From Acipenser ruthenus (lineage: Eukaryota): a DNA stretch of 64,000 nt. Numbering within the stretch: position 1 is the first letter of the stretch; each line of letters begins with the position of its first letter. The stretch is from NCBI RefSeq assembly GCF_902713425.1, contig NC_081212.1, positions 9,908,261-9,972,260 of the forward strand. Direction: 5' to 3'. The position numbers were made by a program, and so were the translations under genes. This document shows, piece after piece, positions 1,434-62,789 of this stretch. The notes beneath the pieces are model-generated. The model did no database searches. It was not told the origin of the DNA and saw only the letters and a list, made by a program, of their open reading frames with translations.

Positions 1434-1434
<1 letters not shown>
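610..1434 (-). mobile_element. LINE ORF1 fragment of the CR1/L2 clade with an SGNH/GDSL esterase domain and a C-terminal proline-rich tandem repeat
   Basis: 274-aa ORF with the motif IVIHTGTNNL and downstream features typical of the esterase domain in CR1-like ORF1; repeated PRPRPHHRAA blocks. Confidence 0.6.

Positions 1435-1438
<4 letters not shown>

Positions 1439-1474
<36 letters not shown>
1439..1474. repeat. (CT)n microsatellite
   Basis: direct reading. Confidence 0.95.
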
Positions 1475-1477
<3 letters not shown>

Positions 1478-1510
1478 GATCTCCTGGGCTGCCTGTGGTT
1501 ATGGGTTCAC

Positions 1511-4500: not shown

Positions 4501-4576
4501 AGGAATGGTTTAGATTGTACAGCTTACAGGGCTGTGTCTTTGTGTTGTTGATCTGCTCTGTTCTTTTTATGAACAC
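1511..4576 (-). mobile_element. 5'-truncated CR1/L2-clade LINE: ORF2 RT in two frames (3509-4576 N-terminal with NYRGI motif, 1903-3360 with YADD motif and a C-terminal Cys/His knuckle), and a 3' tail of 30-bp tandem repeats (1640-1900)
   Basis: RT motifs PNNYRGICVSS, FLLYADDLVLLS and HCGHCETGEVETEIHFLTQC; tandem (ccctccctctatattaaacagaat)n 3' tail; flanked on both sides by (TC)n plus the rcc1l exon-start motif. Confidence 0.8.
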
Positions 4577-10200: not shown

Positions 10201-10211
10201 GTGTCTCTTAC

Positions 10212-30257: not shown

Positions 30258-30352
30258 TAACACTCACAAGAGCATGGTCGAATTTGAAGGTGCTGATGTA
30301 GTAGGCAGGAATGTCAGCAGCAGCCAGGGATTCAGATATCTGAGCCACGATC
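30258..30352 (-). CDS. castor2: CASTOR/GATS-like protein coding exon (DECGIVAQISESLAAADIPAYYISTFKFDHAL)
   Basis: minus-strand acceptor CTCTCTCTCAG at 30353-30363, which is also the first unit of the 8.6-kb tandem array; donor GTGAGT at 30257-30252; matches human DECGIVAQIAGPLAAADISAYYISTFNFDHAL. Confidence 0.88.
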
Positions 30353-33300
30353 CCACACTCATCTGAGAGAGAGACAGAGAGGCAGACAATCACACATGAT
30401 CCCACACTCATCTGAGAGGCAGACAATCACACACTATCCCACACTCATCTGAGAGAGAGACAGAGAGGTAGACAATCACACACGATCCCACACTCATCTG
30501 AGAGAGAGACAGAGAGGCAGACAATCACACATGATCCCACACTCATCTGAGAGGCAGACAATCACACACTATCCCACACTCATCTGACAGGCAGACAATC
30601 ACACACGATCCCACACTCATCTGAGAGAGAGACAGAGAGGTAGACAATCACACACGATCCCACACTCATCTGAGAGAGAGACAGAGAGGCAGACAATCAC
30701 ACATGATCCCACACTCATCTGAGAGGCAGACAATCACACACTATCCCACACTCATCTGACAGGCAGACAATCACACACGATCCCACACTCATCTGAGAGA
30801 CAGAGGTAGACAATCACACATGATCCCACACTCATCTGAGAGAGAGACAGAGAGGTAGACAATCACACACGATCCCACACTCATCTGAGAGACAGAGAGG
30901 TAGACAATCACACACGATCCCACGCTCATCTGAGAGAGAGACAGAGAGGTAGACAATCACACACGATCCCACACTCATCTGAGAGAGAGACAGACAATCA
31001 CACACGATCCCACACTCATCTGAGAGAGAGACAGAGAGGTAGACAATCACACACGATCCCACACTCATCTGAGAGAGAGACAGAGAGGTAGACAATCACA
31101 CACGATCCCACACTCATCTGAGAGAGAGACAGAGAGGTAGACAATCACACACGATCCCACACTCATCTGAGAGAGAGACAGAGAGGCAGACAATCACACA
31201 CGATCCCACACTCATCTGAGAGACAGACAATCACACACGATCCCACACTCATCTGAGAGAGACAGAGGCAGACAATCACACACGATCCCACACTCATCTG
31301 AGAGGTAGACAATCACACACGATCACACACTCATCTGAGAGAGAGACAGAGAGGTAGACAATCACACATGATCCCACACTCATCTGAGAGAGAGACAGAC
31401 AATCACACTCGATCCCACACTCATCTGAGAGAGAGACAGAGAGGTAGAGAATCACACACAATCCCACACTCATCTGAGAGAGACAGACAATCACACACGA
31501 TCCCACTCATCTGAGAGAGAGACAGAGAGGTAGACAATCACACACGATCCCACACTCATCTGAGAGACAGAGGTAGACAATCACACACGATCCCACACTC
31601 ATCAGAGAGAGACAGAGAGGTAGACAATCACACACGATCCCACACTCATCTGAGAGAGAGACAGACAATCACACACGATCCCACACTCATCTGAGAGAGA
31701 GACAGAGAGGTAGACAATCACACACGATCCCACACTCATCTGAGAGAGAGACAGAGAGGTAGACAATCACACACGATCCCACACTCATCTGAGAGAGACA
31801 GACAATCACACACGATCCCACACTCATCTGAGAGAGAGACAGACAGACAATCACACACGATCCCACACTCATCTGAGAGAGACAGACAATCACACACGAT
31901 CCCACTCATCTGAGAGAGAGACAGAGAGGCAGACAATCACACACGATCCCACACTCATCTGAGAGGTAGACAATCACACACGATCCCACACTCATCTGAG
32001 AGAGAGACAGACAATCACACACGATCCCACACTCATCTGAGAGAGAGACAGAGAGGCAGACAATCACACACGATCCCACACTCATCTGAGAGAGAGACAA
32101 TCACACACGATCCCACACTCATCTGAGAGAGAGACAGACAATCACACACGATCCCACACTCATCTGAGAGAGAGACAGAGAGGTAGACAATCACACATGA
32201 TCCCACACTCATCTGAGAGAGACAGACAATCACACACGATCCCACACTCATCTGAGAGGTAGACAATCACACACGATCCCACACTCATCTGAGAGAGAGA
32301 CAATCACACACGATCCCACACTCATCTGAGAGAGAGACAGAGAGGCAGACAATCACACACGATCCTACACTCATCTGAGAGAGAGACAGAGAGGTAGACA
32401 ATCACACACGATCCCACACTCATCTGAGAGAGAGGCAGACAATCACACACGATCCTACACTCATCTGAGAGAGACAGAGAGGCAGACAATCACACACGAT
32501 CCTACACTCATCTGAGAGATAGACAGACAATCACACTCGATCCCACACTCATCTGAGAGAGAGACAGAGAGGTAGACAATCACACACGATCCCACACTCA
32601 TCTGAGAGAGAGAGACAGACAATCACACACGATCCCACACTCATCTGAGAGAGAGACAGAGAGGTAGACAATCACACACGATCCCACACTCATCTGAGAG
32701 AGAGACAGAGAGGTAGACAATCACACAGGATCCCACACTCAACTGAGAGAGAGACAGACAATCACACACGATCCCACACTCATCTGAGAGAGAGACAGAG
32801 AGGTAGACAATCACACACGATCCCACACTCATCTGAGAGAGAGACAGACAATCACACTCGATCCCACACTCATCTGAGAGAGAGAGAGAGAGGTAGACAA
32901 TCACACACGATCCCACACTCATCTGAGAGAGACAGACAATCACACACGATCCCACTCATCTGAGAGAGAGACAGACAATCACACACGATCCCACACTCAT
33001 CTGAGAGTTAGACAATCACACACGATCCCACACTCATCTGAGAGAGAGACAATCACACACGATCCCACACTCATCTGAGAGACAGACAATCACACGATCC
33101 CACACTCATCTGAGAGAGAGACAGACAGACAGACAATCACACACGATCCCACACTCATCTGAGAGAGAGACAGAGAGGTAGACAATCACACACGATCCCA
33201 CACTCATCTGAGAGAGAGACAGAGAGGCAGACAATCACACATGATCCCACACTCATCTGAGAGGCAGACAATCACACACTATCCCACACTCATCTGACAG

Positions 33301-36300
33301 GCAGACAATCACACACGATCCCACACTCATCTGAGAGACAGAGGTAGACAATCACACATGATCCCACACTCATCTGAGAGAGAGACAGAGAGGTAGACAA
33401 TCACACACGATCCCACACTCATCTGAGAGACAGAGAGGTAGACAATCACACACGATCCCACACTCATCTGAGAGGTAGACAATCACACACGATCCCACAC
33501 TCATCTGAGAGAGAGACAATCACACACGATCCCACACTCATCTGAGAGACAGACAATCACACGATCCCACACTCATCTGAGAGAGAGACAGACAGACAGA
33601 CAATCACACACGATCCCACACTCATCTGAGAGGTAGACAATCACACACGATCCCACACTCATCTGAGAGAGAGACAGAGAGGCAGACAATCACACACGAT
33701 CCCACACTCATCTGAGAGGTAGACAATCACACACGATCCCACACTCATCTGAGAGAGAGACAGACAATCACACACGATCCCACACTCATCTGAGAGAGAG
33801 ACAGAGAGGCAGAGAATCACACACGATCCCACACTCATCTGAGAGAGAGACAGACAATCACACACGATCCCACACTCATCTGAGAGAGAGACAGACAATC
33901 ACACACGATCCCACACTCATCTGAGAGAGAGACAGAGAGGCAGACAATCACACACGATCCTACACTCATCTGAGAGAGACAGAGAGGCAGACAATCACAC
34001 ACGATCCCACACTCATCTGAGAGGTAGACAATCACACACGATCCCACACTCATCTGAGAGAGAGACAGAGAGGTAGACAATCACACACGATCCCACACTC
34101 ATCTGAGAGAGAGACAGACAGACAGACAATCACACACGATCCTACACTCATCTGAGAGAGAGACAGACAATCACACTCGATCCCACACTCATCTGAGAGA
34201 AAGACAGAGAGGTAGAGAATCACACACGATCCCACACTCATCTGAGAGAGAGACAGAGAGGTAGACAATCACACACGATCCCACACTCATCTGAGAGAGA
34301 GACAGACAGACAATCACACACGATCCCACACTCATCTGAGAGAGAGACAGAGGTAGACAATCACACACGATCCCACACTCATCTGAGAGAGACAGACAAT
34401 CACACACGATCCCACTCATCTGAGAGAGAGACAGTGAGGCAGACAATCACACACGATCCCACACTCATCTGAGAGGTAGACAATCACACACGATCCCACA
34501 CTCATCTGAGAGAGAGACAGACAATCACACACGATCCCACACTCATCTGAGAGAGAGACAGAGAGGCAGACAATCACACACGATCCCACACTCATCTGAG
34601 AGAGAGACAGACAATCACACACGATCCCACACTCATCTGAGAGAGAGACAGACAATCACACACGATCCCACACTCATCTGAGAGAGAGACAGAGAGGCAG
34701 ACAATCACACACGATCCTACACTCATCTGAGAGAGACAGAGAGGCAGACAATCCCACACGATCCCACACTCATCTGAGAGAGAGACAGACAATCACACTC
34801 GATCCCACACTCATTGAGAGAAAGACAGAGAGGTAGAGAATCACACACGATCCCACACTCATCTGAGAGAGAGACAGACAATCACACACGATCTCACACT
34901 CATCTGAGAGAGAGACAGAGAGGTAGACAATCACACACGATCCCACACTCATCTGAGAGAGAGACAGACAATCACACACGATCCCACACTCATCTGAGAG
35001 AGAGACAGACAATCACACTCGATCCCACACTCATCTGAGAGAAAGACAGAGAGGTAGAGAATCACACATGATCCCACACTCATCTGAGAGAGAGACAGAC
35101 AATCACACACGATCCCACACTCATCTGAGAGAAAGACAGAGAGGTAGAGAATCACACACGATCCCACACTCATCTGAGAGAGAGACAGACAATCACACAC
35201 GATCCCACACTCATTGAGAGAAAGACAGAGAGACAGACAATCACACACGATCCCACACTCATCTGAGAGAGAGACAGAGAGGCAGACAATCACACACGAT
35301 CCTACACTCATCTGAGAGAGACAGAGAGGCAGACAATCACACACGATCCCACACTCATCTGAGAGGTAGACAATCACACACGATCCCACACTCATCTGAG
35401 AGAGAGACAGAGAGGTAGACAATCACACACGATCCCACACTCATCTGAGAGAGAGACAGACAGACAGACAATCACACACGATCCTACACTCATCTGAGAG
35501 AGAGACAGACAATCACACTCGATCCCACACTCATCTGAGAGAAAGACAGAGAGGTAGAGAATCACACACGATCCCACACTCATCTGAGAGAGAGACAGAG
35601 AGGTAGACAATCACACACGATCCCACACTCATCTGAGAGAGAGACAGAGGTAGACAATCACACACGATCCCACACTCATCTGAGAGAGACAGACAATCAC
35701 ACACGATCCCACTCATCTGAGAGAGAGACAGAGAGGCAGACAATCACACACGATCCCACACTCATCTGAGAGGTAGACAATCACACACGATCCCACACTC
35801 ATCTGAGAGAGAGACAGACAATCACACACGATCCCACACTCATCTGAGAGAGAGACAGAGAGGCAGACAATCACACACGATCCCACACTCATCTGAGAGA
35901 GAGACAATCACACACGATCCCACACTCATCTGAGAGAGAGACAGACAATCACACACGATCCCACACTCATCTGAGAGAGAGACAGAGAGGCAGACAATCA
36001 CACACGATCCCACACTCATCTGAGAGAGAGACAGAGGTAGACAATCACACACGATCCCACACTCATCTGAGAGAGACAGACAATCACACACGATCCCACT
36101 CATCTGAGAGAGAGACAGAGAGGCAGACAATCACACACGATCCCACACTCATCTGAGAGAGAGACAGAGGTAGACAATCACACACGATCCCACACTCATC
36201 TGAGAGAGACAGACAATCACACACGATCCCACACTCATTTGAGAGGTAGACAATCACACACGATCCCACACTCATCTGAGAGAGAGACAGACAATCACAC

Positions 36301-39003
36301 TCGATCCCACACTCATTGAGAGAAAGACAGAGAGGTAGAGAATCACACACGATCCCACACTCATCTGAGAGAGAGACAGACATTCACACACGATCTCACA
36401 CTCATCTGAGAGAGAGACAGAGAGGTAGACAATCACACACGATCCCACACTCATCTGAGAGAGAGACAGACAATCACACACGATCCCACACTCATCTGAG
36501 AGAGAGACAGACAATCACACTCGATCCCACACTCATCTGAGAGAAAGACAGAGAGGTAGAGAATCACACACGATCCCACACTCATCTGAGAGAGAGACAG
36601 ACAATCACACACGATCCCACACTCATCTGAGAGAAAGACAGAGAGGTAGAGAATCACACACGATCCCACACTCATCTGAGAGAGAGACAGACAATCACAC
36701 ACGATCCCACACTCATTGAGAGAAAGACAGAGAGACAGACAATCACACACGATCCCACACTCATCTGAGAGAGAGACAGAGAGGCAGACAATCACACACG
36801 ATCCTACACTCATCTGAGAGAGACAGAGAGGCAGACAATCACACACGATCCCACACTCATCTGAGAGGTAGACAATCACACACGATCCCACACTCATCTG
36901 AGAGAGAGACAGAGAGGTAGACAATCACACACGATCCCACACTCATCTGAGAGAGAGACAGACAGACAGACAATCACACACGATCCTACACTCATCTGAG
37001 AGAGAGACAGACAATCACACTCGATCCCACACTCATCTGAGAGAAAGACAGAGAGGTAGAGAATCACACACGATCCCACACTCATCTGAGAGAGAGACAG
37101 AGAGGTAGACAATCACACACGATCCCACACTCATCTGAGAGAGAGACAGACAGACAATCACACACGATCCCACACTCATCTGAGAGAGAGACAGAGGTAG
37201 ACAATCACACACGATCCCACACTCATCTGAGAGAGACAGACAATCACACACGATCCCACTCATCTGAGAGAGAGACAGAGAGGCAGACAATCACACACGA
37301 TCCCACACTCATCTGAGAGAGAGGCAGACAATCACACACGATCCCACACTCATCTGAGAGAGAGACAGAGAGGTAGACAATCACACACGATCCCACACTC
37401 ATCTGAGAGAGAGACAGACAGACAATCACACACGATCCCACACTCATCTGAGAGAGACAGACAATCACACACGATCCCACTCATCTGAGAGAGAGACAGA
37501 GAGGCAGACAATCACACACGATCCCACACTCATCTGAGAGGTAGACAATCACACACGATCCCACACTCATCTGAGAGAGAGACAGACAATCACACACGAT
37601 CCCACACTCATCTGAGAGAGAGACAGAGAGGCAGACAATCACACACGATCCCACACTCATCTGAGAGAGAGACAATCACACACGATCCCACACTCATCTG
37701 AGAGAGAGACAGACAATCACACACGATCCCACACTCATCTGAGAGAGAGACAGAGAGGCAGACAATCACACACGATCCTACACTCATCTGAGAGAGACAG
37801 AGAGGCAGACAATCCCACACGATCCCACACTCATTTGAGAGGTAGACAATCACACACGATCCCACACTCATCTGAGAGAGAGACAGACAATCACACTCGA
37901 TCCCACACTCATTGAGAGAAAGACAGAGAGGTAGAGAATCACACACGATCCCACACTCATCTGAGAGAGAGACAGACAATCACACACGATCTCACACTCA
38001 TCTGAGAGAGAGACAGAGAGGTAGACAATCACACACGATCCCACACTCATCTGAGAGAGAGACAGACAATCACACACGATCCCACACTCATCTGAGAGAG
38101 AGACAGATAATCACACTCGATCCCACACTCATCTGAGAGAAAGACAGAGAGGTAGAGAATCACACACGATCCCACACTCATCTGAGAGAGAGACAGACAA
38201 TCACACACGATCCCACACTCATCTGAGAGAAAGACAGAGAGGTAGAGAATCACACACGATCCCACACTCATCTGAGAGAGAGACAGACAATCACACACGA
38301 TCCCACACTCATTGAGAGAAAGACAGAGAGGTAGAGAATCACACACGATCCCACACTCATCTGAGAGAGAGACAGACAATCACACACGATCTCACACTCA
38401 TCTGAGAGAGAGACAGAGAGGTAGACAATCACACACGATCCCACACTCATCTGAGAGAGAGACAGAGAGGTAGACAATCACACACGATCCCATACTCATC
38501 TGAGAGAGAGACAGACAATCACACACGATCCCACACTCATCTGAGAGAGAGACAGACAATCACACTCGATCCCACACTCATCTGAGAGAAAGACAGAGAG
38601 GTAGAGAATCACACACCATCCCACACTCATCTGAGAGAGAGACAGACAATCACACACGATCCCACACTCATCTGAGAGAGAGACAGAGAGGTAGACAATC
38701 ACACACGATCCCACACTCATCTGAGAGAGAGACAGACAATCACACACGATCCCACACTCATCTGAGAGAGAGACAGAGAGGTAGACAATCAAACACGATC
38801 CCACACTCATCTGAGAGAGAGACAGAGAGGTAGACAATCACACACGATCCCACACTCATCTGAGAGAGACAGACAATCACACACGATCCCACACTCATCT
38901 GAGAGAGAGACAGAGAGGTAGACAATCACACACGATCCCACACTCATCTGAGAGAGAGACAGACAATCACACACGATCCCACACTCATCTGAGAGACAAT
39001 CAC
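30353..39003 (-). repeat. 8.6-kb tandem array (about 170 units of 40-57 bp) whose unit is a copy of the castor 3' splice site (polypyrimidine + CAG) plus the first 17 nt of the exon (ATGAGTGTGGGATCGTG = DECGIV); higher-order period about 1.5 kb
   Basis: minus-strand unit atgagtgtgggatcgtg|tgtgattgtctacctctctgtctctctctcag; every supplied minus-strand ORF in the region reads …SDECGIVCDCLPLCLSLR; identical ORFs recur at 1502-bp spacing (34949/36451; 34814/36316/37912 on +). Confidence 0.9.
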
Positions 39004-40088: not shown

Positions 40089-40484
40089 CCTGAGGGAGAC
40101 AGCATGCAGTCATGAGATATGAACACACTGCTGCCGGATATAGAATCAGGATCTACGCAGCTAACTCTGCTGGATCTGAACACCATCCCTGTTAGATTAC
40201 ATACTTAAGCCCTTCAGAAAGGTTGGGGAGTTGGGGGAGCTTTCCCTCAAAATCTGTTCTGATTCTTTCCTGCTTTTTCAGTATAGGCATATGGGAGATA
40301 CCCAGACTGAAAAAGCAGGAAAAAACAACCTTAAAACAGAGACAAGAATTGGAAACAAAATAACATAAAAGATATGTCACTGAAATTTACCTTAAGTTTA
40401 AGCTCAACAAAGGGCATTAATGTCAGCTTATTAATGTCAGAACTTTGTCAATTTGAGTCTTAAAGGACCCCAGTGATTCAGCAT

Positions 40485-41098
40485 TGTGACGAAGTGCCCG
40501 CCCCTGTGTGTATTTTGTGTGTTATGTGTTGTATGTTGCGTGTGTTAATGTTGGTGTATAGTCATTGGTACACGGGATATAAACGGGTCTGTGTTTCACG
40601 TGTATTTAAAAATGTAGATTTGTATTTAGGCACGAGGAGGGCACAAATCACTTCACGTGCTGGTTAAATGTAATATATGAGCACGGGGTTTGCACAGAAT
40701 TAATTCACGTGCTGGGATTCAAGTGAATAATTAATTAGTAATTGAATCCCAGCACAACAGTATATATAGATGCACATTTCTTTCACTCAGGGTTGGGTGT
40801 TCGGTGAGTGGAGAACGGGAGAGAGAGAAGGAGAAAATAAAACAAAGTAAAGTAATTAGAAGTGTTTTCACTCACCGTGTTTGTTCGTCTGTCTGTTTAA
40901 GTGTAGTACGTTTTGTTTGTCTTTTTATTTTGGCGTATAGTGCCGTGTCCCGTGTTTTGTGTTAAAACCTTTTATTTTCTGTGCTGTTTATTAAATGCTG
41001 AGCGAAACCATTCGCTCAGCTCCACCAAACCACACCTCTCTGTCTGTTTATTTCCTGCTTCTGGTCTGACGCCACCGACTCCGGCCGTCTTTGTGACA
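40485..41098 (+). mobile_element. solo LTR (614 bp, TG…CA) of the LTR family at 56766-60419, with 5-bp TSD AGCAT (40480-40484 and 41099-41103); inserted into a CR1-like 3' fragment
   Basis: about 85% identical to the reverse complement of the LTRs at 56766-57377 and 59809-60419; flanking CR1 fragment is contiguous across the insertion (…cagtgattcAGCAT / AGCATcaacaacttaactag…). Confidence 0.8.
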
Positions 41099-41507
41099 AG
41101 CATCAACAACTTAACTAGATAACCCATTCCATACCTTCACCACTCTCTGTGTCAAGAGGTGTCTCCAACCAAACAACATGAATGTCACGTGGGTCAGAGA
41201 ATAACCCATCATTACATTCTACCTTTTAAGTGTGGAAACTCCCTGTGACAGAGCAGAGGCTCTGCACACGGCTGTGTGAGTTTGGTGAAGGAAGCTGGAA
41301 ACAAGATGCCCACCCTTGCACAGCAACAGGACATTGTTTAATTGTTTGATTGTTTAATTGTTGGATTAATCGAGTGATTGAAGTTTGAATGGAAAAGTGG
41401 AATGAGGCCAGTGATTGGATGATGGAATCAATTAAGCCCCTGGCCTCATGGTATAAAAAGGGAACAAAGGAGTATTTGGTAAGAGTGTGTCAGAGATGTG
41501 TCAGTGA

Positions 41508-42650: not shown

Positions 42651-42959
42651 TGATATAGCAATAATGGCATTGCTGTGGTGCTTTCCTTGTTAATAATTTA
42701 CTTGGGAATTCAATTATTACCCTGTATCATGCCACAACAATGCTAGTATCCCTTAAATCAGGGGTTCCCCCTGAGGCCCACCTAAGCAGCTGCAATACGC
42801 ACTAAGGCCCACTAACACTTCCTGAGGAAAATGATTCATTGTGATTCTAACATGCTGTGGCAAAGTGCTTAGAAAAAAAGCTTTATTAAGGGCTTTTAAA
42901 TAATAACAACAATGTGTATATTCAGTAAAACCACGGGGTTCAGTCTCAAAATGATAATA

Positions 42960-47600: not shown

Positions 47601-48790
47601 AGTTCCTCTGTGACTCCCATAGTCCGGGAAAACACATGCAGACAGTGGCAGGGACACCAAGAGGTGATAGAAGCAACAGGAATTATAAAATACAGCAGCT
47701 GGATCGCAGAAAAAAGGAGCAAATATATCACATTAATCTCTTGAAACCTTGGAGGAACAGAAAAACGGTTTTAATCAACGGCAGGGAAATAAGTCAGAGT
47801 GAAAGTGTGAAAGTGGTCCTAATTTAGGAGAGGGACAGTGTAGAACAAATGTTAAAGCTGGGAGTTATAGAGGAATCTAACAGCAAGTGGACTAGTTCTA
47901 TAGTGCTAGTGCCAAAACCAGATGGGACACAGCACTTCTTTAACAATACTAGGAAATTAAATAAAGTGTCCAAGTTTGATGCCTACCCTATGCCCCGGTT
48001 AGACAAACTAATAGAAAAGTTAGGCAAAGACAGATTTGTGTCCACACTAGGTCTAACTAAAGGTTCCTGGCAGATACCGTTGATGGACATGGCAAAAGAG
48101 AAAACAACATTTGTCAATCTTGAAGGTTTATTCCAGTATATGGTGATGCCCTTCGGCTTGCATGGTGCCCCTGCAACCTTTCAGAGGTTAATAGATACAA
48201 TACGCATCAGCTTATTCGGATGACATTGTGGTATACAGTGAAGACTGGGAATCACACCTGGGTAAAGTCGGGGCTGTTTCACACAGTCTTTGGAAAGCAG
48301 ATCTTACTGCCAACACAGAAAAATGTCATGTAGGATTGATCCTGTGTTAGTGGTCCCAGATTTTGGAAAACCCTTTATACTACAGACAGACGTATCTGAT
48401 GTCGGGCTGGGGCCAGTGCTGTCACAGGGCATAGACGGAGAAGAGCACCCAGTAAAGAGGTATAGACGGAGAAGAGCACCCAGTAATCTACGTCACTAGA
48501 AAATTACTACCAAGGGAACAAAGATGCACAATTGTGGAGAAAGAGTGCCAGGCAATAAAGTGGGCAATAGAAACACTAAAGCATTATCTGTTGGGCAGGG
48601 AATTCACTCTTATTACGGACCATGCTCCTCTGAAATGGATAAGGGTGAATAAAGAAAGAAATGCTAGTCACCAGATGTTTTTTTGTCTTTACAGCCATAC
48701 CGCTTTACCATCGAATACAGAGCTGGAGCAAAACATGGTAATGCGGATGGGCTGTCGAGGGTCCACTGTCTCTCAGCTGAGTCCACTCTA
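47600..48790 (+). mobile_element. Ty3/gypsy LTR-retrotransposon pol fragment (RT and RNase H), frameshifted
   Basis: RT: IVLVPKPDGTQHFFNNTRKLNKVSKFDAYPMPRLDKLIEKLGKDRFVSTLGLTKGSWQIPLMDMAKEKTTFV…MPFGLHGAPATFQRLID; RNase H: ITDHAPLKW and YRAGAKHGNADGLSR. Confidence 0.8.
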
Positions 48791-49975: not shown

Positions 49976-52814
49976 TCTTAGGATTGTCAAGAACAATCAA
50001 GAATTGTTCCCATTTAGAAGTGGAAGAACTGCAGTAGCAGCGGACTGACCAGTAGATGTCATCAGTATCAGAAATCAGAGTGGTAGCAAAACACCTGAGT
50101 TTAACACTAGAACCGCCAGGCAGTCATTAATACGAGGTTTTCACTTTTAAAATTGTAATTACTCTACGTGTTTGAAAGACACGCAGTTGTCCATTCTTGA
50201 CTTTTCCTAAGTATATGTATTAGATAACCTGATGGCATTTGAAAGGAAGGATCGCAAAACTGTCACATTGACTGCCTTATACAATACATGTTTTTATTTT
50301 GAATATAACCTACAATATTCTATTTTATTTTTATATATAAGCCTGTTGTTATCTCTACTAGACCCGGCAGCCATCAATTCCTTTGTTTTGTACAAGGAAT
50401 GCCCCGGGGAAAATTTCAGTAGAAGAGATTTCATCTTGAAGCTAGCCACAGCGCTTCGGCAGAAACATTTCGATCAGAAAACTGCAAAGCAGCAGGCTGC
50501 AGCAGCTCAACCAGATTCTGTGCTGCACTGCGTGACACACGCAGGAGAAAACATATGTTACTTTTGTTTTAAATTAAAAACTACTTTCATTTTTACAAAA
50601 CTGTTAAAGGCAGAAGTGTTAAAAGGGACTAGGAGCTCTTAAAATAAACAAATCCCCTGGGCCAGATGAGATCCTCCCAATAGTACTCAAAGAAATAAAA
50701 TAAATTATTTACAAACCGCTAACCAAGATCATGCAACAGTCTCTTGACACAGGGGTTGTATCGACAGACTGGAGAATTGCAAATGTAATACGATCCACAA
50801 AAAGGGAAACAAAACTGAACCAGGTAACTACAGACCAATAAGCCTGACTTCTATTATATGTAAACTTATGGAAACTATAATAAGATCCAAAATGGAAAAT
50901 TACCTATATGGTAACAGTATCCTGGGAGACAGTCAGCATGGTTTTAGGAAAGGGAGATCGTGTCTAAATAACCTGCTTGATTTTTTTGAGGATGCAACAT
51001 CGACAATGGATAATTGCAAAGCATATGAAATGGTTTATTTAGATTTCCAGAAAGCTTTTGACAAAGTCCCGCATAAAAGATTAATTCTCAAACTGAACGC
51101 AGTAGGGATTCAAGGAAATGCATGCACATGGATTAGGGAGTGGTTAACATGTAGAAAACAGAAAGTACTGATTAAAGGAGAAACCTCAAAATGGAGCGAG
51201 GTAACCAGTGGTGTACCACAGGGATCAGTATTAGGTCCTCTGCTATTCCTAATCTACATTAATGATTTAGATTCTGGTATAGTAAGCAAACTTGTTAAAT
51301 TTGCAGATGACACAAAAATAGGAGTGGCAAACACTGTTACAGCAGCAAAGGTCATTCAAAATGATCTAGACAGCATTCAGAACTGGGCAGACACATGGCA
51401 AATGACATTTAATAGAGAAAAGTGTAAGGTACTGCACACAGGCAATAAATATGTGCATTATAAATATCATATGGGAGATACTGAAATTGGAGAAGGAATC
51501 TATGAAAAAGACCTAGGAGTTTATGTCGACTCAGAAATGTCTTGATGTAGACAATGTGGGGAAGCTATAAAAAGGCCAACAAGATGCTCGGATATATTGT
51601 GAAAAGTGTTGAATTTAAATCAAGGGAAGTAATGTTAAAACTTTACAATGCATTAGTAAGACCTCATCTAGAATATTGTGTTCTGTTCTGGTCACCTTGT
51701 TACAAAAAGGATATTGCTGCTCTAGAAAGAGTGCAAAGAAGAGCGACCAGAATTAGCCTGGGTTTAAAAGGCATGTCGTATGCAGACAGGCTGAAAGAAT
51801 TTAATCTATTCAGTCTTGAACAAAGAAGACTACGCGGCGAACTGATTCAAGCATTCAAAATTCAAAAAGGTATAGACAATGTCAACCCAGGGGACTTCTT
51901 TGACCTGAAAAAAGAAACAAGGACCAGGGGTCACAAATGGAGATTAGATAAAGGGGCATTCAGAACAGAAAATAGGAGACACTTTTTTACACAGAGAATT
52001 GTGAGGGTCTGGAACCAACTCCCCAGTAATGTTGTTGAAGCCGACACCCTGGTATCCTTCAAGCAGCTGCTTGATGAGATTCTGGGATCAATAAGCTACT
52101 AACAACCAAACGAGCAAGATGGGCCGAATGGCCTCCTCTCGTTTGTAAACTTTTTTATGTTCTTATATTTACCCCTGCTTCCACGCTGGTTTCTTTTGAA
52201 ATGTTTATTTTATTATAGTTTCATATTTTGAAGTAGTGCTTTATATGTGGCAAGTTAGAAATAAACCCTTTTATGGTTAATTGTTCATTTAAATACGGCG
52301 TTTCGGCTGTGCAGATGTTTGATATGATGTGCTTGAATAAAACTTTTGAGTTGTATCCGATAGTTTAAATATTAATACTGATGTTGTTTAGAATGTAACC
52401 GTCATAATGACTGCCAGCGGTGGTTTTAGGTATGAGTATAACCACAGCGGTTCCAGTGTTAATGAGGTAATTGGATCATTTGAAATGGACTGTTATTTAA
52501 TTAAGCACTAACCATAAAAAAACATTTTGGGTGTGTCAGAAAGGAGAGCAAGAGGGAGTGCTGGAGAGTGGAGTTAGAACCTGTGAGTAACAAGAACTGG
52601 TGTTTAAGAGACAAGTAAACAGCTTAGCTATCCTGTGACAGACAGGGAAGCAACTTTAAATTGTGTCGGTAGTATCTTCAAGTGATTTTTGTTTGTTTGT
52701 TTGTTTTGTGTTGTATAATTTGTGAATAGCATTGTGTTGGAACTGCAAAACAAAGTCTCCAGAGTTTTGTACCTACACCGCTGTACCCAGCCACGTTCCC
52801 ACAATATGTAAAAC

Positions 52815-54200: not shown

Positions 54201-54602
54201 ATCAAACAAGTCTGTTTATTTTTAAATATCTGGTACTATTCTAGGTTATGAAATCTGTTTGCAGCCATGCTTTTAGACCGTCTTTCACTTCCTGGGTCAC
54301 CTGAGGGTGAAATTGTCTCCGTCCCTTCACCGGATTCTTCCTGTCACTAGCCAACCAGCTGCTCTCCCTATTGACTGACATGCCTTCAGCCAGTAACATG
54401 ACCCAGAGGACACTGCTGAGGTGAAATGACCAAAAAGCAGTAGCAGACTTCCTGGTAGGCAGGGCAAGAAACATGAGAACGTTCTTTAGCCTGTGTGTTT
54501 CAAAAGGAATGTTTGAAACCCATGTAGCTAATGGAAGTGCAAAACGGTAAGATTGATGGAATCACCTTGTTAGCCCTAGAGCTCAGATGAAAGCACCTTA
54601 AC

Positions 54603-55312
54603 ACAGTATTACAAGATGAAGCACACTGTACTACAAGATGAAGCACACTGTATTACAAGATGAAGCGCACTGTATTACAAGATGAAGCACAGTATTACAA
54701 GATGAAGCACACAGTATTACAAGATGAAGCACACTGTATTACAAGATGAAGCACACTGTATTACAAGATGAAGCGCACTGTATTACAAGATGAAGCGCAC
54801 AGTATTACAAGATGAAGTACACTGTATTACAAGATGAAGTACACTGTATTACAAGATGAAGCACACAGTATTACAAGATGAAGCGCACTGTATTACAAGA
54901 TGAAGCGCACAGTATTACAAGATGAAGCGCACAGTATTACAAGATGAAGCGCACAGTATTACAAGATGAAGCGCACAGTATTACAAGATGAAGCGCACAG
55001 TATTACAAGATGAAGCGCACAGTATTACAAGATGAAGCACACTGTATTACAAGATGAAGCACACTGTATTACAAGATGAAGCACACTGTACTACAAGATG
55101 AAGCACACTGTATTACAAGATGAAGCACACTGTACTACAAGATGAAGCACACTGTATTACAAGATGAAGCACACTGTATTACAAGATGAAGCGCACTGTA
55201 TTACAAGATGAAACACACTGTATTACAAGATGAAGCACACAGTATTACAAGATGAAGCACACTATTACAAGATGAAGCACACTGTATTACAAGATGAAGC
55301 ACACTGTATTTG
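54603..55312. repeat. 21-bp minisatellite (gtattacaagatgaagc[a/g]cac[a/t])n, about 34 copies
   Basis: direct reading. Confidence 0.9.
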
Positions 55313-56099: not shown

Positions 56100-56380
56100 A
56101 ACTCCAAATCAACACTGCAGAGCGCTCTAGTAGTATAGGAAAGAGAACTCCACTCAACACTGCAGAGTGCTCTGGCAGTATAGGAAAGAGAACTCCACTC
56201 AACACTGCAGAGTGCTCTGGTAGTACAGGAAAGAGAACTCCCCTCAATACTGCAGTGCGCTCTAGTAGTATAGGAAAGAGAACTCCACTCAACACTGCAG
56301 AGCGCTGTAGTAGTATAGGAAAGAGAACTCCACTCAACACTGCAGAGCGCTCTAGTAGTATAGGAAAGTATTGGAAAGAT
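56100..56380. repeat. 57-bp minisatellite (ctccactcaacactgcagagcgctctagtagtataggaaagagaa…)n, about 5 copies
   Basis: direct reading. Confidence 0.85.
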
Positions 56381-56499
56381 TTCTGTTTTGCTGTGGAACT
56401 AGGTATTGTATTGATTACAATATTTGAAGAGAGTCCAACGAAGAGCAAACTGATTAACCGCAAGGCTAAAGGAATGAGCTATGAAGATAAGTGTGGAGA

Positions 56500-56760
56500 A
56501 GGAGATGCTTGTTCACACAAAGAGTGGTGAGGGTATGCAATGGGTTTCCTAGTCATGTTGTTGAAGGAAACACTTCTTCACACAGAGAGTGGTGAGGGTA
56601 TGGAATGGGTTTCCTAGTCATGTTGCTGAAGGAGACACTTGTTCACACAGAGAGTGGTGAGGGTATGGAATGGGTTACCTAGTCATGTTGTTGAAGGAGA
56701 CACTTCTTCACACAGAGAGTGGTGAGGGTATGGAATGGGTTTCCTAGTCATGTTGTATGT
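56500..56760 (+). repeat. tandem quadruplication of a 60-bp piece of the CR1-like 3' terminus (cacttcttcacacagagagtggtgagggtatggaatgggtttcctagtcatgttgttgaaggaga)n
   Basis: direct reading. Confidence 0.85.
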
Positions 56761-56765
56761 ATGCT

Positions 56766-59700
56766 TGTCACAAAGACGGCCAGAGTGGGTGGCGTCAGAC
56801 CAGAAAAGGAATACACAGACAGACGGTGGTGATGATGAGCTGAGTGCAATGGCTGCACTCAGCGTTTATTAACAAATAAAAAGGTTTAACAGTACAAAAA
56901 CAGGACACGGCACTGGTAGCCAAAAGAAACATATAAACAAAACGGACTAAACACTAAACAGACGGTGCAGGACAGACAGACGAACACGGCGAGTACAAAC
57001 AACTATTATATTTACGATCTTTTCGCTTTTTAACTCTCCTTCTCCACACCCGTTCTCCACTCCCGAACACCTAACCCTGACTGACTAAAAATGTGCCTAT
57101 TTATACTGTTGTGCTGGGATTCAATTACTAATTAATTATTCACTTGAATCCCAGCACGTGAATTAATTCTGTGCAACCCCGTGCTCACATAATAGATTTA
57201 ACCAGCACGTGAAGTGATTTGTGCTCTCCTCGTGCCTAAATACAAATCTACACTTTTTAAATACACGTGAATCACAGACCTGTTTATATCCCGTGTACCA
57301 ATCTATACACCAACATTTACACACGCAACACGCAACACATAACACAAATGCACACAGGGGCGGGGCGCTTTGCCACATATACCCCCCCTTGTGCGCAGCA
57401 CACATGGCCTCAACGGCCACCTCCCCCCTTAAAAATCCAGCAGTCCAGGACAAAGTCTCGGGCTGGGAAGGGAGGCTTCAGTGGGCCCATGGCTGGCCAT
57501 GCTGTCAGCACCCCTGCCGGTAGTGGCACGGCTGACAGCCTGTTGGTCCCATCCTGCAGCGAAAAAGCTGCGGGGGCAGGTGGTCCCCCGACCTCCCCCT
57601 TCTTCGTAGCCGGCAGCTCCCTCCTGTGGGGCTCCGGCCACAAGACCTCCTGCAGCGAAACTGCTGCTGGGGAAAGTGGTCTCCAGACCTCGTCCCCCTT
57701 CTTTGTAGCCGGTAGCTCCCTTTGGTGGGGCTCCGACCACAGTACTGCCGGCAGCGAAGAAGCTGCAGTGGGAGCAGGTCTCCGGACCTCCCCCACGATC
57801 TCCGGCAGCGAAACTGCTGCAGTGGGAGCAGGTCTCCGGACCTCCCCCACGATCTCCGGCAGCGAAACTGCTGCAGTGGGAGCAGGTCTCCGGACCTCCC
57901 CCACGATCTCCGGCAGCGAAACTGCTGCAGTGGGAGCAGGTCTCCTGACCTCCCCCACGATCTCCGGCAGCGAAACTGCTGCAGTGGGAGCAGGTCTCCA
58001 GACCTCCTCCCCCTTCTTCGTGGCCGACAGCTCCCCTTTCTGGGGCTCCGGCCACCGTACTCCCCGTGGTGGAGGTATGGGAAGCAGAGACAGCTCCTGC
58101 TGTTCTGCTTCTGGCAGTGGCAGAGGCAGAGGCAGCTCCTCTGCTCCTGGAAGTGGCAGAGGCAGCTCCTGCTCCTCTGCTCCTGGAAGTGGCAGAGGCA
58201 GCTCCTGCTCCTTTGCTCCTGCCGGTGTAGGTGGCGGAGGCAGAGGCAGCTCCGGCTGCTCTGCTCCTGCCGTTGTAGGTGGCGGAGGCAGAGGCAGCTC
58301 CTGCTCCTCTGCTCCTGGAAGTGGCAGAGGCAGCTCCGGCTGCTCTGCTCCTGTCGGTGAAGGTGGGAGCAGCGTGTAGTCTCCTGCCGATGGAGGTGGG
58401 AGCAGCGTGTAGTCTCCCCCTTTTTCAGGGGACTGGTGCTGCTCTGCCTCTCTTGCAGCGGACTGGTGCGGCTCTGCTTCTGAAGGGGAAACCAGCAGGC
58501 ATTCTTCCTCTGCTGGTTGTGCTGGGGAAACCAGCAGGCATTCTTCCTCTGCTGGTTGTGCTGGGGAAACCAGCAGGCATTCTTCCTCTGCTGGTTGTGC
58601 TGGGGAAACCAGCAGGCATTCTTCCTCTGCTGGTTGTGCTGGGGAAACCAGCAGGCATTCTTCCTCTGCTGGTTGGGCTGGGGAAACCAGCAGGCATTCT
58701 TCCTCTGCTGGTTGTGATGGGGAAACCAGCAGGCATTCTTGCTCTGCTGGTGAAGGTGGGAACAGCTGCCTCTCAGGCTTCGGATTCCCGCGGTCCCCCC
58801 GTCTGGGCGCTGGACGCTCGCGGTCCCCCCGTCTGGGCGCTGGACGCTCGCGGTCCCCCCGTCTGGGCGCTGGTTCCTCCTCTTCATACTGGGTGGGGCA
58901 TATGGCTAACGTGTGCCCATAAGCCCCACAGCCAGGGCATAACTCTGCTGCGAGGTTCTTTAAAAAAACCTCCCAGCCATCATCCTCGACCTCCTCCCTT
59001 TTGGGCTGTGGACGCCCCGACTCCTCCCTTTTGGGCTGTGGACACTCGGGTTCCCCCCACTCAGGCGTAGGACGTTCGGGTTCCTCCCACTCAGGCGTAG
59101 GACGCTCGGGCTCCTCCCACTCGGGCTGTGGACGCTCAGGCTCCTCCCACTCGGGCTGTGGACGCTCAGGCTCCTCCCACTCGGGCTGTGGACGCTCAGG
59201 CTCCTCCCACTCGGGCTGTGGACGCTCAGGCTCCTCCCACTCGGGCTGTGGACGCTCAGGCTCCTCCCACTCGGGCTGTGGACGCTCAGGCTCCTCCCAC
59301 TCGGGCTGTGGACGCTCAGGCTCCTCCCACTCAGGTACTGGAGAGGGCAGCGACTGCTCCTCTCCCTCTTGCTCACTGGAAGGCATCCCTCCCATGTCTG
59401 CAGCTAGGTAACCCAGCACCACAATGGTGAGGTCACGAACGGATGCCGGGTTGTGCTGTTGCTCCCAGTCCTCCCATCATTTCCCATCTCGCATCTGCAG
59501 TGCGTGAATAACCATGGGGAGGTCACTGGCGAAGTTCCCCTCGGGGTGCACCAGCCAGTCCCATATTTCCCGGGACGGTGGGGAACCCGGTGGCAGTGGG
59601 GGTAGAGGGGTGGCTACTGCCCCGTTGTGGCTGTCCTCCTCCCAGCAGGATGAGGGCTGCAGCTGTTGTTGTTGCTGCTGCTGCTTCTGCTGCTTCCTGC

Positions 59701-60419
59701 AGCTCTTTCTTCCCATCCTCGCTTTACTATTTTTTTTTTTTTTTTTTCACAAAACCCCCTCTCCTGGTCTGACGCTTGGAGGCGCTATTATCCCACGATG
59801 ACACCACGTGTCACAAAGACGGCCAGAGTGGGTGGCGTCAGACCAGAAAAGGAATACACAGACAGACGGTGGTGATGATGAGCTGAGTGCAATGGCTGCA
59901 CTCAGCGTTTATTAACAAATAAAAAGGTTTAACAGTACAAAAACAGGACACGGCACTGGTAGCCAAAAGAAACATATAAACAAAACGGACTAAACACTAA
60001 ACAGACGGTGCAGGACAGACAGACGAACATGGTGAGTACAAACAACTATTATATTTACGATCTTTTCGCTTTTTAACTCTCCTTCTCCACACCCGTTCTC
60101 CACTCCCGAACACCTAACCCTGACTGACTAAAAATGTGCCTATTTATACTGTTGTGCTGGGATTCAATTACTAATTAATTATTCACTTGAATCCCAGCAC
60201 GTGAATTAATTCTGTGCAACCCCGTGCTCACATATTACATTTAACCAGCACGTGAAGTGATTTGTGCTCTCCTCGTGCCTAAATACAAATCTACACTTTT
60301 TAAATACACGTGAAACACAGACCCGTTTATATCCCGTGTACCAATCTATACACCAACATTTACACACGCAACACGCAACACATAACACAAATGCACACAG
60401 GGGCGGGGCGCTTTGCCAC
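56766..60419 (-). mobile_element. young non-autonomous LTR retrotransposon (3654 bp): 611/612-bp LTRs at 56766-57377 and 59809-60419, TG…CA termini, 5-bp TSD ATGCT, PBS-like tggtgtcatcgtgggat next to the 5' LTR, polypurine tract aaggggggg next to the 3' LTR, and a single gag-like ORF
   Basis: the two LTR copies are about 99% identical; TSD ATGCT at 56761-56765 and 60420-60424; internal ORF has a CCHC knuckle CPGCGAYGHTLAIC; no pol. Confidence 0.85.
57410..59422 (-). CDS. gag-like ORF (670 aa) of the LTR element: one CX2CX4HX4C zinc knuckle and extensive internal tandem peptide repeats (PEWEEPERPQ x10, PAQPAEEECLLVS x7, RRPAPTAAVSLPEIVGEV x4)
   Basis: longest ORF in the window; lies between PBS and PPT of the LTR element; overlapping + strand ORFs are alternate-frame artefacts. 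Confidence 0.6.
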   Translation of the reverse strand: MVLGYLAADMGGMPSSEQEGEEQSLPSPVPEWEEPERPQPEWEEPERPQPEWEEPERPQPEWEEPERPQPEWEEPERPQPEWEEPERPQPEWEEPERPQPEWEEPERPTPEWEEPERPTPEWGEPECPQPKREESGRPQPKREEVEDDGWEVFLKNLAAELCPGCGAYGHTLAICPTQYEEEEPAPRRGDRERPAPRRGDRERPAPRRGDRGNPKPERQLFPPSPAEQECLLVSPSQPAEEECLLVSPAQPAEEECLLVSPAQPAEEECLLVSPAQPAEEECLLVSPAQPAEEECLLVSPAQPAEEECLLVSPSEAEPHQSAAREAEQHQSPEKGGDYTLLPPPSAGDYTLLPPSPTGAEQPELPLPLPGAEEQELPLPPPPTTAGAEQPELPLPPPPTPAGAKEQELPLPLPGAEEQELPLPLPGAEELPLPLPLPEAEQQELSLLPIPPPRGVRWPEPQKGELSATKKGEEVWRPAPTAAVSLPEIVGEVRRPAPTAAVSLPEIVGEVRRPAPTAAVSLPEIVGEVRRPAPTAAVSLPEIVGEVRRPAPTAASSLPAVLWSEPHQRELPATKKGDEVWRPLSPAAVSLQEVLWPEPHRRELPATKKGEVGGPPAPAAFSLQDGTNRLSAVPLPAGVLTAWPAMGPLKPPFPARDFVLDCWIFKGGGGR

Positions 60420-61214
60420 AATGCTATATTGGGAAACCATACTGTACAGCAACTTGCATTTAGACCTTCTAATCTTCTGTTTTTATTTCCCAGAGTGGTT
60501 TAAGTGTGGTAACAATCAAACTGATATTATCAGAACCTCATTAACTCCCATTATATTCTGTCCAGGACATTTTAATGCGGTGATAAGAAGCAGAGTGACA
60601 TTAAGTGATATTAAGAATGGTCAAGATACAAACTGTCAGACAGGCCCTCCAATTTGAACCACAGCTACATACATCTCATTATTCATGGATTGTTTTTGGT
60701 CTGGTATTGCCATAGAAGAAGGATTCTGTAAAACATTTATTTGCAAACCAAACTTCCTGCTTGATAAATGTACCGGCACCTGTTTCACAACACCAGGGTT
60801 TCAGTAGCCATGGTGACAAATAAAGGTCACCTGACAACCAGACTGTAATGGCAATGATTCACTCTGCACACACAAACACACAGAAAACTGCCTGGCAGTA
60901 AATTTGACCTGGTGGTTACAACTGAGGGACTGAGGGAGACAGTGTGGCCTACTGTTTTCAACAGAGGGGTTGGGAGGGAGGAAATGCGGCCTAGAGGTTA
61001 GATTTTAGTGACTGAGAAGAAAGCAGTGTTGTAATTCAAGCTGAGGGACTAAAATGTTTAAAGCGACCCGTAAAATGCATTAATCCGTTAAAATGAAAAT
61101 ACAGGTTTGCTAGAATGAGTTTCTTTCAAAACTGCACACTTGAGACCTATGTAGCTAATGGAAGTGCATGACAGGGAAGACTTTTGAAATTATTTTGGTA
61201 GGTACACTTTAGGG

Positions 61215-61410
61215 TGCAAGGTAATGACAGCGCTGGGGAGCTGAGAATGGGGTGTTTAGACTAGTACTCATTATTATGATGCAGGGTAATGACAGCACTG
61301 GAGAGCTGAGAATGGGGTGTTTAGACTAGTGCTCATTATTATGATGCAGGGTAATGACAGCACTGGAGAGCTGAGAATGGGGTGTTTAGACTAGTGCTCA
61401 TTATTAAGAT
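61215..61410. repeat. about 60-bp tandem repeat, 3 copies (ggtaatgacagcactggagagctgagaatggggtgtttagactagtgctcattattatgatgcag)
   Basis: direct reading. Confidence 0.85.
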
Positions 61411-62789
61411 ACATTCCTTGCCTACTATAGATGTTTCGGATAGGCTGTAATGAGATAAACTTCATTTTATACAAATAGTTTCAGATACTGTGCCATTAGT
61501 ATGGAATTATGAGGTAGGTGCATGCACTGGTTAATATTTGTTGTAAAGGTCAATATTTTGGTTAATAAAAAACAGAAGGTGGCAAAATGGTAAAAAAAAC
61601 CCAAAAAAACTTGAAATAATTCAAGGCTTTCTTGTTAAATTTTGTAACAAATGGAATGTGCATGACAATCTTTAGAACATTAATCTGGCCTACTGTATTG
61701 CATATACTATACAACAACAATTGCTTGGTGTCAAGAAACCTTTGCTAGAAATTGGTGAATACACCCCATATATATCCAGAATCTGATCTCACTAACTTAT
61801 GCCAAATAATGTTAATATCAAGTTTCAAGACAACTGGATACGCAGTTCTCCAGATATTCAGCTGTTCAATTGTTCTTCTCTTTAAATAGTCCATTTGAAT
61901 GGGGTATCAGGGTTCATTTACTTCAAAGATTTTACTGTAATATGGTACGGATCAAATTCTGAAAGAATATTCAAACATGAGAAGCCACTCTATGTTCTGT
62001 GTTTTCTTAGCAACACTGTTGTGTTCTGATGTCCAGTTAGTTCACTGGATCACAGCATGAGCCCTATCTCCTTGGCACATGCCTTGCTTGTCAGTATTAC
62101 CTGATCGTGAATTTTACACAACTCCTTCCCTACCCCAGCTAATCTTAGTGCCTATAAGTGACACCATTCTTAACCCATTAATCACACGGTCTCCCATAAA
62201 ATTACATCAGCTGATACAGATGAGATCTGATGTCTCCCCCGCCCTCCTACCCACGTCACTCCTTTCGAGTTTCTGCCTGTTTGGGCTAACAGCTAACTGC
62301 TCTACCCTTGTGACCAGCAGCTGCTATTCCAAATCAAACAGATTAGCATCAAGAGATACTTTACAGCACCACTTAAGAACATGTACAGAGACAGGAGGCC
62401 ATTCTGCCCATCTAAGGTCATCCGGTTAATAGAAACAGATTGATCTCAGAACTTTGTCAAGTTGGGTCTTAAAGAATCCAAGTAATTTGTGTTGCTTGAT
62501 ACATTATTAGCTAAAAATCTAATAGAGGAGAATGGGACTGTGGCAAAGTGGTTAAAAGTGTGCAGGTGCAGGTAATGGAGCAGTGATCAATGAACAGACA
62601 GACAACGATAATCCAGGCGCAATGGTGTTTTATTTGTACAATCCAATTGTCTGATGACACAGAACACAGTAAATAATAATGATTAACAAGCAATACAGCG
62701 GCGTGCATTGCTTTGTTGTAATCCACGGGTTGGTCCTGAAATAATAACAGTCCCATTCTTTTTACCCCCACACATAACACAAACACAAT

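Follow-up and report, generated by a model that had tools for sequence, protein, structure and literature searches.

A non-autonomous LTR retrotransposon bearing one zinc-knuckle reading frame in the sterlet genome

What kind of retroelement surrounds a single, highly repetitive open reading frame (ORF) with two long terminal repeats (LTRs), and by what means would it move? The question is posed by a 64,000-nucleotide stretch of contig NC_081212.1 of the sterlet, Acipenser ruthenus (referred to throughout as the window, with positions counted from its first letter), in which positions 56761-60425 carry such a structure. We read 56761-60425 as one minus-strand insertion of a non-autonomous LTR retrotransposon whose family is multi-copy and, by the databases searched, restricted to Acipenseriformes, and we put the probability of this reading at about 0.85.

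Anatomy of the insertion and its cis signals

The element is 3,655 bp long, to which a 5-bp target-site duplication (TSD) is added, and its interior measures 2,431 bp. The two LTRs, the 3′ LTR at 56766-57377 and the 5′ LTR at 59809-60420 (both minus strand), are 612 bp each and agree at 606 of 612 positions, with no indels and six mismatches, of which three are CpG transitions. Both start with TG and end with CA, as the structural definition of an LTR retrotransposon demands, with the termini TGTGGCAAAG...CTTTGTGACA, and the unit is flanked by ATGCT on its 3′ side (56761-56765) and by the same pentanucleotide on its 5′ side (60421-60425). The original prediction had described an LTR pair of about 99% identity with TG/CA ends and a perfect ATGCT duplication, and all of this holds; its coordinates are right for the left copy, but the right copy had been given one base short of its true extent.

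Other copies were compared at eleven loci of the sturgeon Acipenser sinensis, designated L001 and so on, which were fetched via protein homologues and are thus based on gene models; complete copies are present in three (L003, L007 and L010). The motifs that had been called PBS-like and PPT-like are present at the expected sites and are conserved in these copies. The primer-binding site (PBS), TGGTGTCATCGTGGGAT at 59790-59806 (minus strand), is kept after nine further LTR ends with zero to two substitutions, giving the consensus TGGTGTC[A/C/T]TCG[T/C]GGG[A/G]T, and it always begins 2 nt past the terminal CA. At the opposite end of the interior a polypurine tract (PPT) of the form AAGGGGGGG(TATA) immediately precedes the 3′ LTR, and the 16-mer that abuts the LTR, CACAAGGGGGGGTATA (57378-57393, minus strand), precedes the LTR start at ten sites, the window counted. 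Both LTR-internal junctions carry a 2-nt spacer, CG after U5 (59807-59808, minus strand) and TA before U3, and these spacers would fit two-nucleotide 3′ processing by an integrase of the retroviral type.

Conservation extends into the LTRs themselves. Across LTR subfamilies we find three CACGTG boxes (60312-60307, 60254-60249 and 60203-60198 in the 5′ LTR), an inverted repeat, TATAAATAG at position 273 (60148-60140 in the 5′ LTR and 57105-57097 in the 3′ LTR) and AATAAA at position 508 (59913-59908 and 56870-56865, respectively). Immediately past AATAAA lies a conserved hairpin in the R region (59906-59882 in the 5′ LTR), in which GAGTGC/GCACTC is replaced by the compensatory GAGCG/CGCTC in the subfamily that comprises the L006 LTR and a solo LTR of the window. 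To judge from these motifs, the layout is a retrovirus-like U3-R-U5. U5 and the leader are predicted to pair in an 18-bp stem (59758-59852, minus strand; arms 59852-59834 and 59775-59758) around the PBS and the last part of U5; six copies retain this stem, with one-sided, pairing-compatible changes only and no compensatory pairs, and its conservation is suggestive. The 5′ leader also contains an A18 tract just upstream of the ATG (59730-59747, minus strand), and an A-tract is found in L003 and L001 as well.

Which RNA would prime minus-strand synthesis on such a template? At its 3′ end tRNA-Leu-CAA reads ...ATCCCACTTCTGACACCA, and tRNA-Leu-CAG reads ...ATCCCACTCCTGACACCA (PMC10359600). When the PBS of the window is aligned, with one gap, to the reverse complement of the mammalian tRNA-Leu-CAA 3′ end, 15 of 18 positions agree. 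The divergent PBS of L001, TGGTTGTCAGAAGCGGGAT, reaches 17 of 18 against the tRNA-Leu-CAA complement, with one extra T and one transition. We infer that the PBS of the family is tRNA-Leu-like and that a tRNA-Leu may be the primer; the RNA expected to pair with the window PBS would be a candidate tRNA or tRNA-Leu isodecoder with the 3′ end ...CCCACGATGACACCA. No tRNA gene was detected in the window or in the fetched loci. Self-priming of the Tf1 type is unlikely, as the LTR contains no complement to the PBS of 7 nt or longer.

Family members, insertion sites and age

With the ORF as query, 83 homologous proteins were found, all of them from A. sinensis except two from Polyodon spathula, and A. 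ruthenus proteins are present in a later profile search. The three complete A. sinensis copies have mutually unrelated flanks and TSDs of their own: ATATG in L003 (LTR-pair divergence, K, about 0.05), CGACC in L007 (K 0.027) and CTGGG in L010 (K 0.0032), beside ATGCT in the window copy (K 0.0099). With the solo LTR of the window, which shares the pentanucleotide of the full element (AGCAT when read on the element's own strand), perfect 5-bp TSDs are thus seen at five insertions. These copies bear directly on the notion that the 612-bp repeats are a local segmental duplication and not LTRs, a notion to which the abundance of tandem and dispersed repeats in the window lends some colour. However, a perfect TSD, a PBS and a PPT all lie where they are expected, and the LTR-internal-LTR unit recurs on many A. 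sinensis contigs with differing 5-bp TSDs and unrelated flanks. Because the duplication is fixed at 5 bp while its sequence varies and the contigs differ, segmental duplication is excluded; for the LTR pair it is already refuted by the independent copies, and we regard its probability as negligible.

Some loci have a more complex structure. Tandem units of the form LTR-internal-LTR-internal(-LTR), in which adjacent units share an LTR, occur at L005:1600-7203 and L001:48579-51150, and the two units of L005 encode different protein subfamilies (MTTAED-type and MGRKSCRK-type) with the same LTR and PBS. L011, whose flanks do not match and whose 5′ LTR is deleted, is probably a recombinant.

The age of the window insertion depends strongly on the clock that is applied. 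Orthologues of sterlet and Atlantic sturgeon have a median synonymous divergence (dS) of 0.059 for a split at 166 million years ago (PMC7269910), which gives about 1.8e-10 substitutions per site per year; at this sturgeon rate the window copy would be about 28 million years (My) old, or about 14 My without the three CpG transitions, and if a generic vertebrate rate of 1e-9 per site per year is assumed it would be about 5 My old. The description of the element as very young therefore does not stand, since K = 0.0099 translates to roughly 5-28 My, young only in relative terms; 1% LTR divergence is not readable as "very young" where the neutral clock runs about ten times slower than in mammals. 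The companion claim, that the element was probably recently active, is overstated for a window copy with about 1% divergence, but it does apply to the family: L010:2283-5356, the youngest copy found, has LTRs identical at 633 of 635 positions, that is, two mismatches in 635, and an intact 562-aa ORF. In A. sinensis, activity of the family postdates the window insertion, and the family seems to have been active over a long span (LTR-pair K 0.003 to 0.05), which is consistent with reports that active LTR elements are still present in sturgeon genomes (PMC7269910).

The solo LTR raises the further question of whether the family selects its insertion sites. This third LTR of the window (40485-41098, plus strand; 40480-41103 with its AGCAT flanks on both sides) lies in the opposite orientation to the full element and belongs to a second subfamily, being 84% identical to the L006 LTR, with indels of the L006 type in R/U5, and 80% identical to the LTRs of the full element. 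It sits inside a repeat derived from the 3′ tail of a CR1-like long interspersed nuclear element (LINE), of which about a dozen 5′-truncated copies occur in the 64-kb window (near 10150, 13080, 29560, 42150, 46650, 52000, 53880, 56020 and 62400-62530). Eight of the CR1 tails run uninterrupted through GTTGTTGATGCTGAATCAC with a single ATGCT each, and the solo LTR splits its CR1 tail exactly at ATGCT, with the pentanucleotide duplicated and CR1 sequence on both sides. The full element, with the same TSD, adjoins on one side a CR1-derived array ending ...GTATGTATGCT; the 65-bp tandem units to its left (56498-56756) are copies from the 3′ end of a CR1-like LINE that read in frame as ...RHFFTQRVVRVWNGFPSHVV, the C-terminus of its ORF2, and the same CR1-tail sequence is present in a longer LINE copy at 50868-52102. 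On the other side of the full element some 20 nt of possible CR1 similarity give way to sequence without significant CR1 resemblance. The two insertions, in CR1 copies 16 kb apart, each run antisense to the LINE, and if insertion were random the chance of a second one at the same site and in the same orientation would be about 1e-4 in 64 kb, a figure that hints at a favoured target.

Several ways in which the two insertions might have come to share a TSD were considered and rejected. Segmental duplication does not fit: dispersed CR1 tails and a single further repeat are all that the flanks share, extended collinear homology is absent, and the LTRs belong to different subfamilies. Recombination of a cDNA into a resident solo LTR fits neither the different subfamilies nor the LTRs of the full element, which have no chimeric ends. 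An inversion linking the CR1 fragment at 62376-62487 with the full element fails because that fragment is a separate, complete CR1 tail. The different subfamilies and the non-chimeric LTRs argue instead for two independent insertions. That these reflect a nucleotide-precise hot spot in the CR1-like LINE 3′ tail, at GTTGTTG-ATGCT-GAATCAC in the C-terminal coding region of ORF2, we nevertheless consider doubtful: the three A. sinensis copies with resolved TSDs lie outside CR1 tails, and the distal flank of the full element is not recognisably CR1. The same-site double insertion matters only if it is confirmed genome-wide; CR1-tail targeting, if true, would represent a rare case of a sequence-targeted LTR retroelement in a vertebrate, propagating with only a capsid-less, nucleocapsid (NC)-like protein of its own.

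The reading frame and its protein

A single ORF (57410-59716, minus strand; 768 codons plus stop, ATG...GGGGR*) occupies 95% of the 2,431-bp interior, which leaves no room for pol. Its ATG at 59716 is in good Kozak context, with A at -3 and G at +4, and homologous ORFs are found in A. sinensis. The 670-aa ORF that had been reported at 57410-59422 (minus strand) does exist, but as a GTG-start ORF under the bacterial code; upstream of 59422 the same frame is open to ATG 59716 apart from a single TGA at 59477-59479, which is codon 80. Homologues have arginine at this position (GERWEDW), and at the DNA level three other copies read CGA against the TGA of the window. By this comparison the codon-80 TGA is a CGA>TGA nonsense mutation, and the window copy is coding-dead with its cis signals all kept. 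Given CGA at this codon in the other copies, the ATG-initiated product of the window would end after 79 residues; the ORF is not intact, and the 670-aa frame is the remainder past the stop.

Much of the frame consists of tandem arrays, with periods of 30, 39, 54, 36/48/72, 33 and 99 bp, which together cover 1484 of its 2307 bases (64%). The tandem peptide repeats of the original prediction are thereby confirmed as DNA minisatellite arrays. They comprise a 30-bp unit present 11.4 times (58991-59332, minus strand; PEWEEPERPQ repeats), whose copy number varies among family members, a 39-bp unit found by tandem-repeat analysis to be present 6.8 times (58485-58751, minus strand; PAQPAEEECLLVS repeats), and arrays of 99, 54, 36/48/72 and 33 bp (57552-58417, minus strand) with 18-aa and EQELPLPLPGAE-type repeats. 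The homologous ORFs of the A. sinensis copies are single-exon and 515-723 aa long, and in the family proteins the acidic/proline-rich repeat arrays vary in type and number from copy to copy. Both ends of the ORF are conserved in the family, with an MG(R/K)KS... N-terminus and a ...DCWIFKGGGG(R/H)* C-terminus that abuts the PPT.

Two modules can be recognised outside the repeats. The first is a CCHC zinc knuckle, CPGCGAYGHTLAIC, of the form CX2CX4HX4C (58898-58939, minus strand), which recurs in family members exactly or with few changed residues; family proteins have one to five knuckles each. The pattern occurs 96 times in 50 of the 192 retrieved proteins, compared with 0.04 times in shuffles, and this enrichment bears out the earlier view of the knuckle as real and not coincidental; Pfam matches to zf-CCHC (PF00098) are all below the gathering score, for the window ORF and for family members. 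The second is an N-terminal helical domain of about 61 aa (aa 50-110, EIWDWLV...YLAADMGG; 59387-59569, minus strand), which is alignable between subfamilies at 25-85% identity with W, W, P, Y and L invariant, and for which an AlphaFold2 model gives three helices with a mean predicted local distance difference test (pLDDT) score of 67-84 per 10-residue block over the helices. A HMMER profile scan with this domain returned 108 proteins among 1.84 billion representatives; ten matches were looked up, of which eight come from A. sinensis, one from a Logan contig and one is a fungal low-complexity match.

The order of the two modules is variable, the knuckles lying N-terminal to the helical domain in some subfamilies and C-terminal in others, the window included (P0010, P0162, P0153, P0172). 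This variable order and the knuckle count of one to five suggest module shuffling by template switching. From its sequence, the ORF protein is best described as NC-like and capsid-less, with a basic N-terminus, a lineage-specific three-helix domain, one to five knuckles and hypervariable acidic/proline-rich repeats, and its most likely role would be to bind RNA in the manner of NC and to promote the packaging of the element's own transcript. An Rfam scan of the element gave only two sub-threshold microRNA matches, which were taken as noise.

Several observations weigh against our reading of the locus. The perfect run between the PBS and tRNA-Leu is only 8 nt, after which come two mismatches and a 1-nt gap, and the tRNA compared is mammalian, not from a sturgeon. 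No autonomous partner was found in the protein databases. Pfam, a PDB sequence search and a fold search gave no Gag, capsid or Retrotrans_gag homology for the ORF, such that the Gag assignment of the original prediction is not supported and only the knuckle pattern is Gag-like. In the repeat-rich interior two further frames are likewise open, for 460 aa and 370 aa, and for this reason ORF length alone is weak evidence. Finally, the ratio of nonsynonymous to synonymous divergence (dN/dS) for the N-terminal domain between close copies is 0.6-0.95, which is the expectation for post-insertion decay and no direct proof of selection.

The last two observations are what would be seen if the long ORF were non-functional and kept open merely by GC-rich, stop-poor minisatellite DNA, the element then being a non-coding passenger similar to a large retrotransposon derivative (LARD). 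The large share of the frame taken up by arrays, the nonsense codon in the window copy and the fact that no Pfam family reaches threshold point the same way. Against the stop-poor repeats that open other frames stands a pattern of deep conservation, which is the argument for ORF function: the N-terminal domain, with its invariant residues, can still be made out between subfamilies at identities as low as 25-30%, there is a strong enrichment of canonical knuckles, and the ATG (MGRKSCRKQ) and the C-terminal tail ...DCWIFKGGGGR* are kept despite LTRs that are about 14-20% different and other repeat content. The youngest copy, L010 (K = 0.003), also has an intact ORF, with the caveat that copies were found via gene models, which favours intact ORFs. 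Overall, a non-functional frame seems unlikely to us.

The family ORF is also of consequence for annotation, being listed as "hypothetical protein" in at least 80 A. sinensis gene models, and recognising it as part of a transposable element cleans gene sets. Many A. sinensis models (e.g., P0001 and P0002; loci including L001 and L002) pair the family ORF with Pfam domains of host type, PARP, spondin and kinase among them, and P0003 is a further example of a model that carries it. In the assembly GCA_050626445.1 at least one model, P0062, is a chimera of the family ORF and exons of another element 20 kb away.

Mobilisation in trans and relation to known systems

How, then, would the element move? 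By Pfam, neither the ORF nor the other long frames contain reverse transcriptase (RT), RNase H, protease or integrase domains. The absence of protease, RT and integrase on which the original prediction had rested its case is thus borne out, and since no pol is detected and there is no room for one, we infer that the enzymes must come in trans. A profile of the N-terminal domain run against 5.8 billion proteins yielded no pol-linked relative (only proteins of 52-132 aa were returned), nor did the HMMER scan of 1.84 billion representatives, where Pfam found no RT, protease or integrase in the ten longest matches. The model P0062 was considered as an autonomous partner for its combination of a family N-terminus, CCHC knuckles and an aspartic protease, and was rejected because tblastn places the protease exons in the other element. 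The 12-mers TGTGGCAAAGTG at 42856, 49710 and 62539 were likewise considered as LTR starts of a partner and are parts of unrelated mosaic repeats.

A life cycle compatible with these features can be envisioned. Transcription would start downstream of a U3 TATA box, itself preceded by the three CACGTG boxes, and the transcript would end past the AATAAA and hairpin of the 3′ LTR. An autonomous element would supply RT, RNase H, protease, integrase and probably capsid. Minus-strand synthesis would be primed at the tRNA-Leu-like PBS within the U5-leader stem and plus-strand synthesis at the G7 polypurine tract, after which a retroviral-type integrase would trim 2 nt from each cDNA end (CG after U5, TA before U3) and insert the cDNA via a 5-bp staggered cut.

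The remainder of the window is very repeat-dense. A LINE remnant at 610-4576 (minus strand) has one ORF with an RVT_1 domain (1903-3360) and another with a weak, sub-threshold match to a GDSL-type esterase (610-1434), which suggests a CR1/L2-like element with an esterase domain; the LINE remnant at 50868-52102 (plus strand) consists of ORFs at 50868-51545 and 51554-52102, with an RT domain and a CR1-type C-terminus. A 124-aa ORF at 47849-48223 (plus strand) appears by eye to contain a Gypsy-type RT core (YPMPR...FGLHGAPATFQRL); it is an isolated fragment, and no LTRs or PBS related to the present family lie near it. Satellite or minisatellite arrays are found at 30346-38996, 10210-11711, 54601-55310, 56100-56368 and 61215-61410, among them a 49/90-bp repeat that extends over 8.6 kb, a 37-bp repeat over 1.5 kb and a 22-bp repeat over 0.7 kb, and arrays of 45 bp and 65 bp flank the element.

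As to where the family came from, it could be an internally deleted derivative of a class III (ERV-L-like) endogenous retrovirus (ERV), a fish analogue of the mammalian MaLRs and not derived from Gypsy or BEL elements. ERV-L is primed by tRNA-Leu and makes 5-bp TSDs, and the MaLRs are its non-autonomous derivatives, which outnumber their ERV-L partners. The sturgeon element resembles the MaLR/ERV-L pair in being a non-autonomous LTR element with 5-bp TSDs, here in five insertions, and with a PBS that looks tRNA-Leu-like; the TATA box, AATAAA and R hairpin of its retrovirus-like LTR, the U5-leader stem and the 2-nt spacers at both LTR-internal junctions also favour such an origin. However, 5-bp TSDs and TG/CA LTRs are common in Gypsy, BEL and Copia elements as well, no retroviral Gag is similar to the ORF in sequence or fold, and no pol-bearing relative was found that could be placed on a tree. 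The family has no sequence relationship to the MaLRs, whose interiors are not known for CCHC-knuckle ORFs. The PBS, the TSD and the LTR are equally compatible with a class III ERV/MaLR-like and with a Gypsy or BEL origin, and the class III proposal is a tentative one, with the odds somewhat against it.

Whatever its origin, the element falls within a known class, the non-autonomous LTR retrotransposons, of which it is a new and lineage-specific member; its protein is unusual in that it is capsid-less, repeat-inflated and knuckle-bearing. Within that class it had been called LARD/TRIM-like. LARDs have a large non-coding interior, and terminal-repeat retrotransposons in miniature (TRIMs) are less than about 1 kb in total with LTRs of 100-250 bp. 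The sturgeon element resembles both in lacking pol, in depending on enzymes in trans and in keeping its LTRs, PBS and PPT, but at 3.66 kb, with 612-bp LTRs and one family-conserved ORF over 95% of the interior, the label does not suit it, and the TR-GAG elements of plants are closer. Its protein has the CX2CX4HX4C spacing in common with retroviral and retrotransposon nucleocapsid (zf-CCHC, PF00098), as well as the basic context and the occurrence of several knuckles in one protein; it differs in that the Pfam matches are sub-threshold and that the knuckles precede the helical domain in some subfamilies, unlike the capsid-NC order of Gag.

TR-GAGs (Chaparro et al. 2015, PMC4350172) are non-autonomous LTR retrotransposons of less than 4 kb that lack pol and have a single ORF, and at 3,655 bp with one ORF the sturgeon element has the same structure. 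Like them it combines normal LTRs, PBS, PPT and TSD with one ORF and no pol, and it would share their dependence on a partner; some TR-GAG copies are apparently active (PMC4350172). It departs from them in its protein: the TR-GAG ORF is recognisably a Copia- or Gypsy-type GAG, a similarity that the sturgeon ORF lacks, being Gag-like in its CCHC knuckles alone, and two-thirds of the sturgeon ORF are hypervariable tandem repeats. The hosts differ too, plants in the one case and a basal ray-finned fish in the other. The architecture of LTRs plus one gag-like ORF, formally described in plants, is extended to a basal ray-finned fish, in a form in which capsid is apparently absent and the modules are shuffled.

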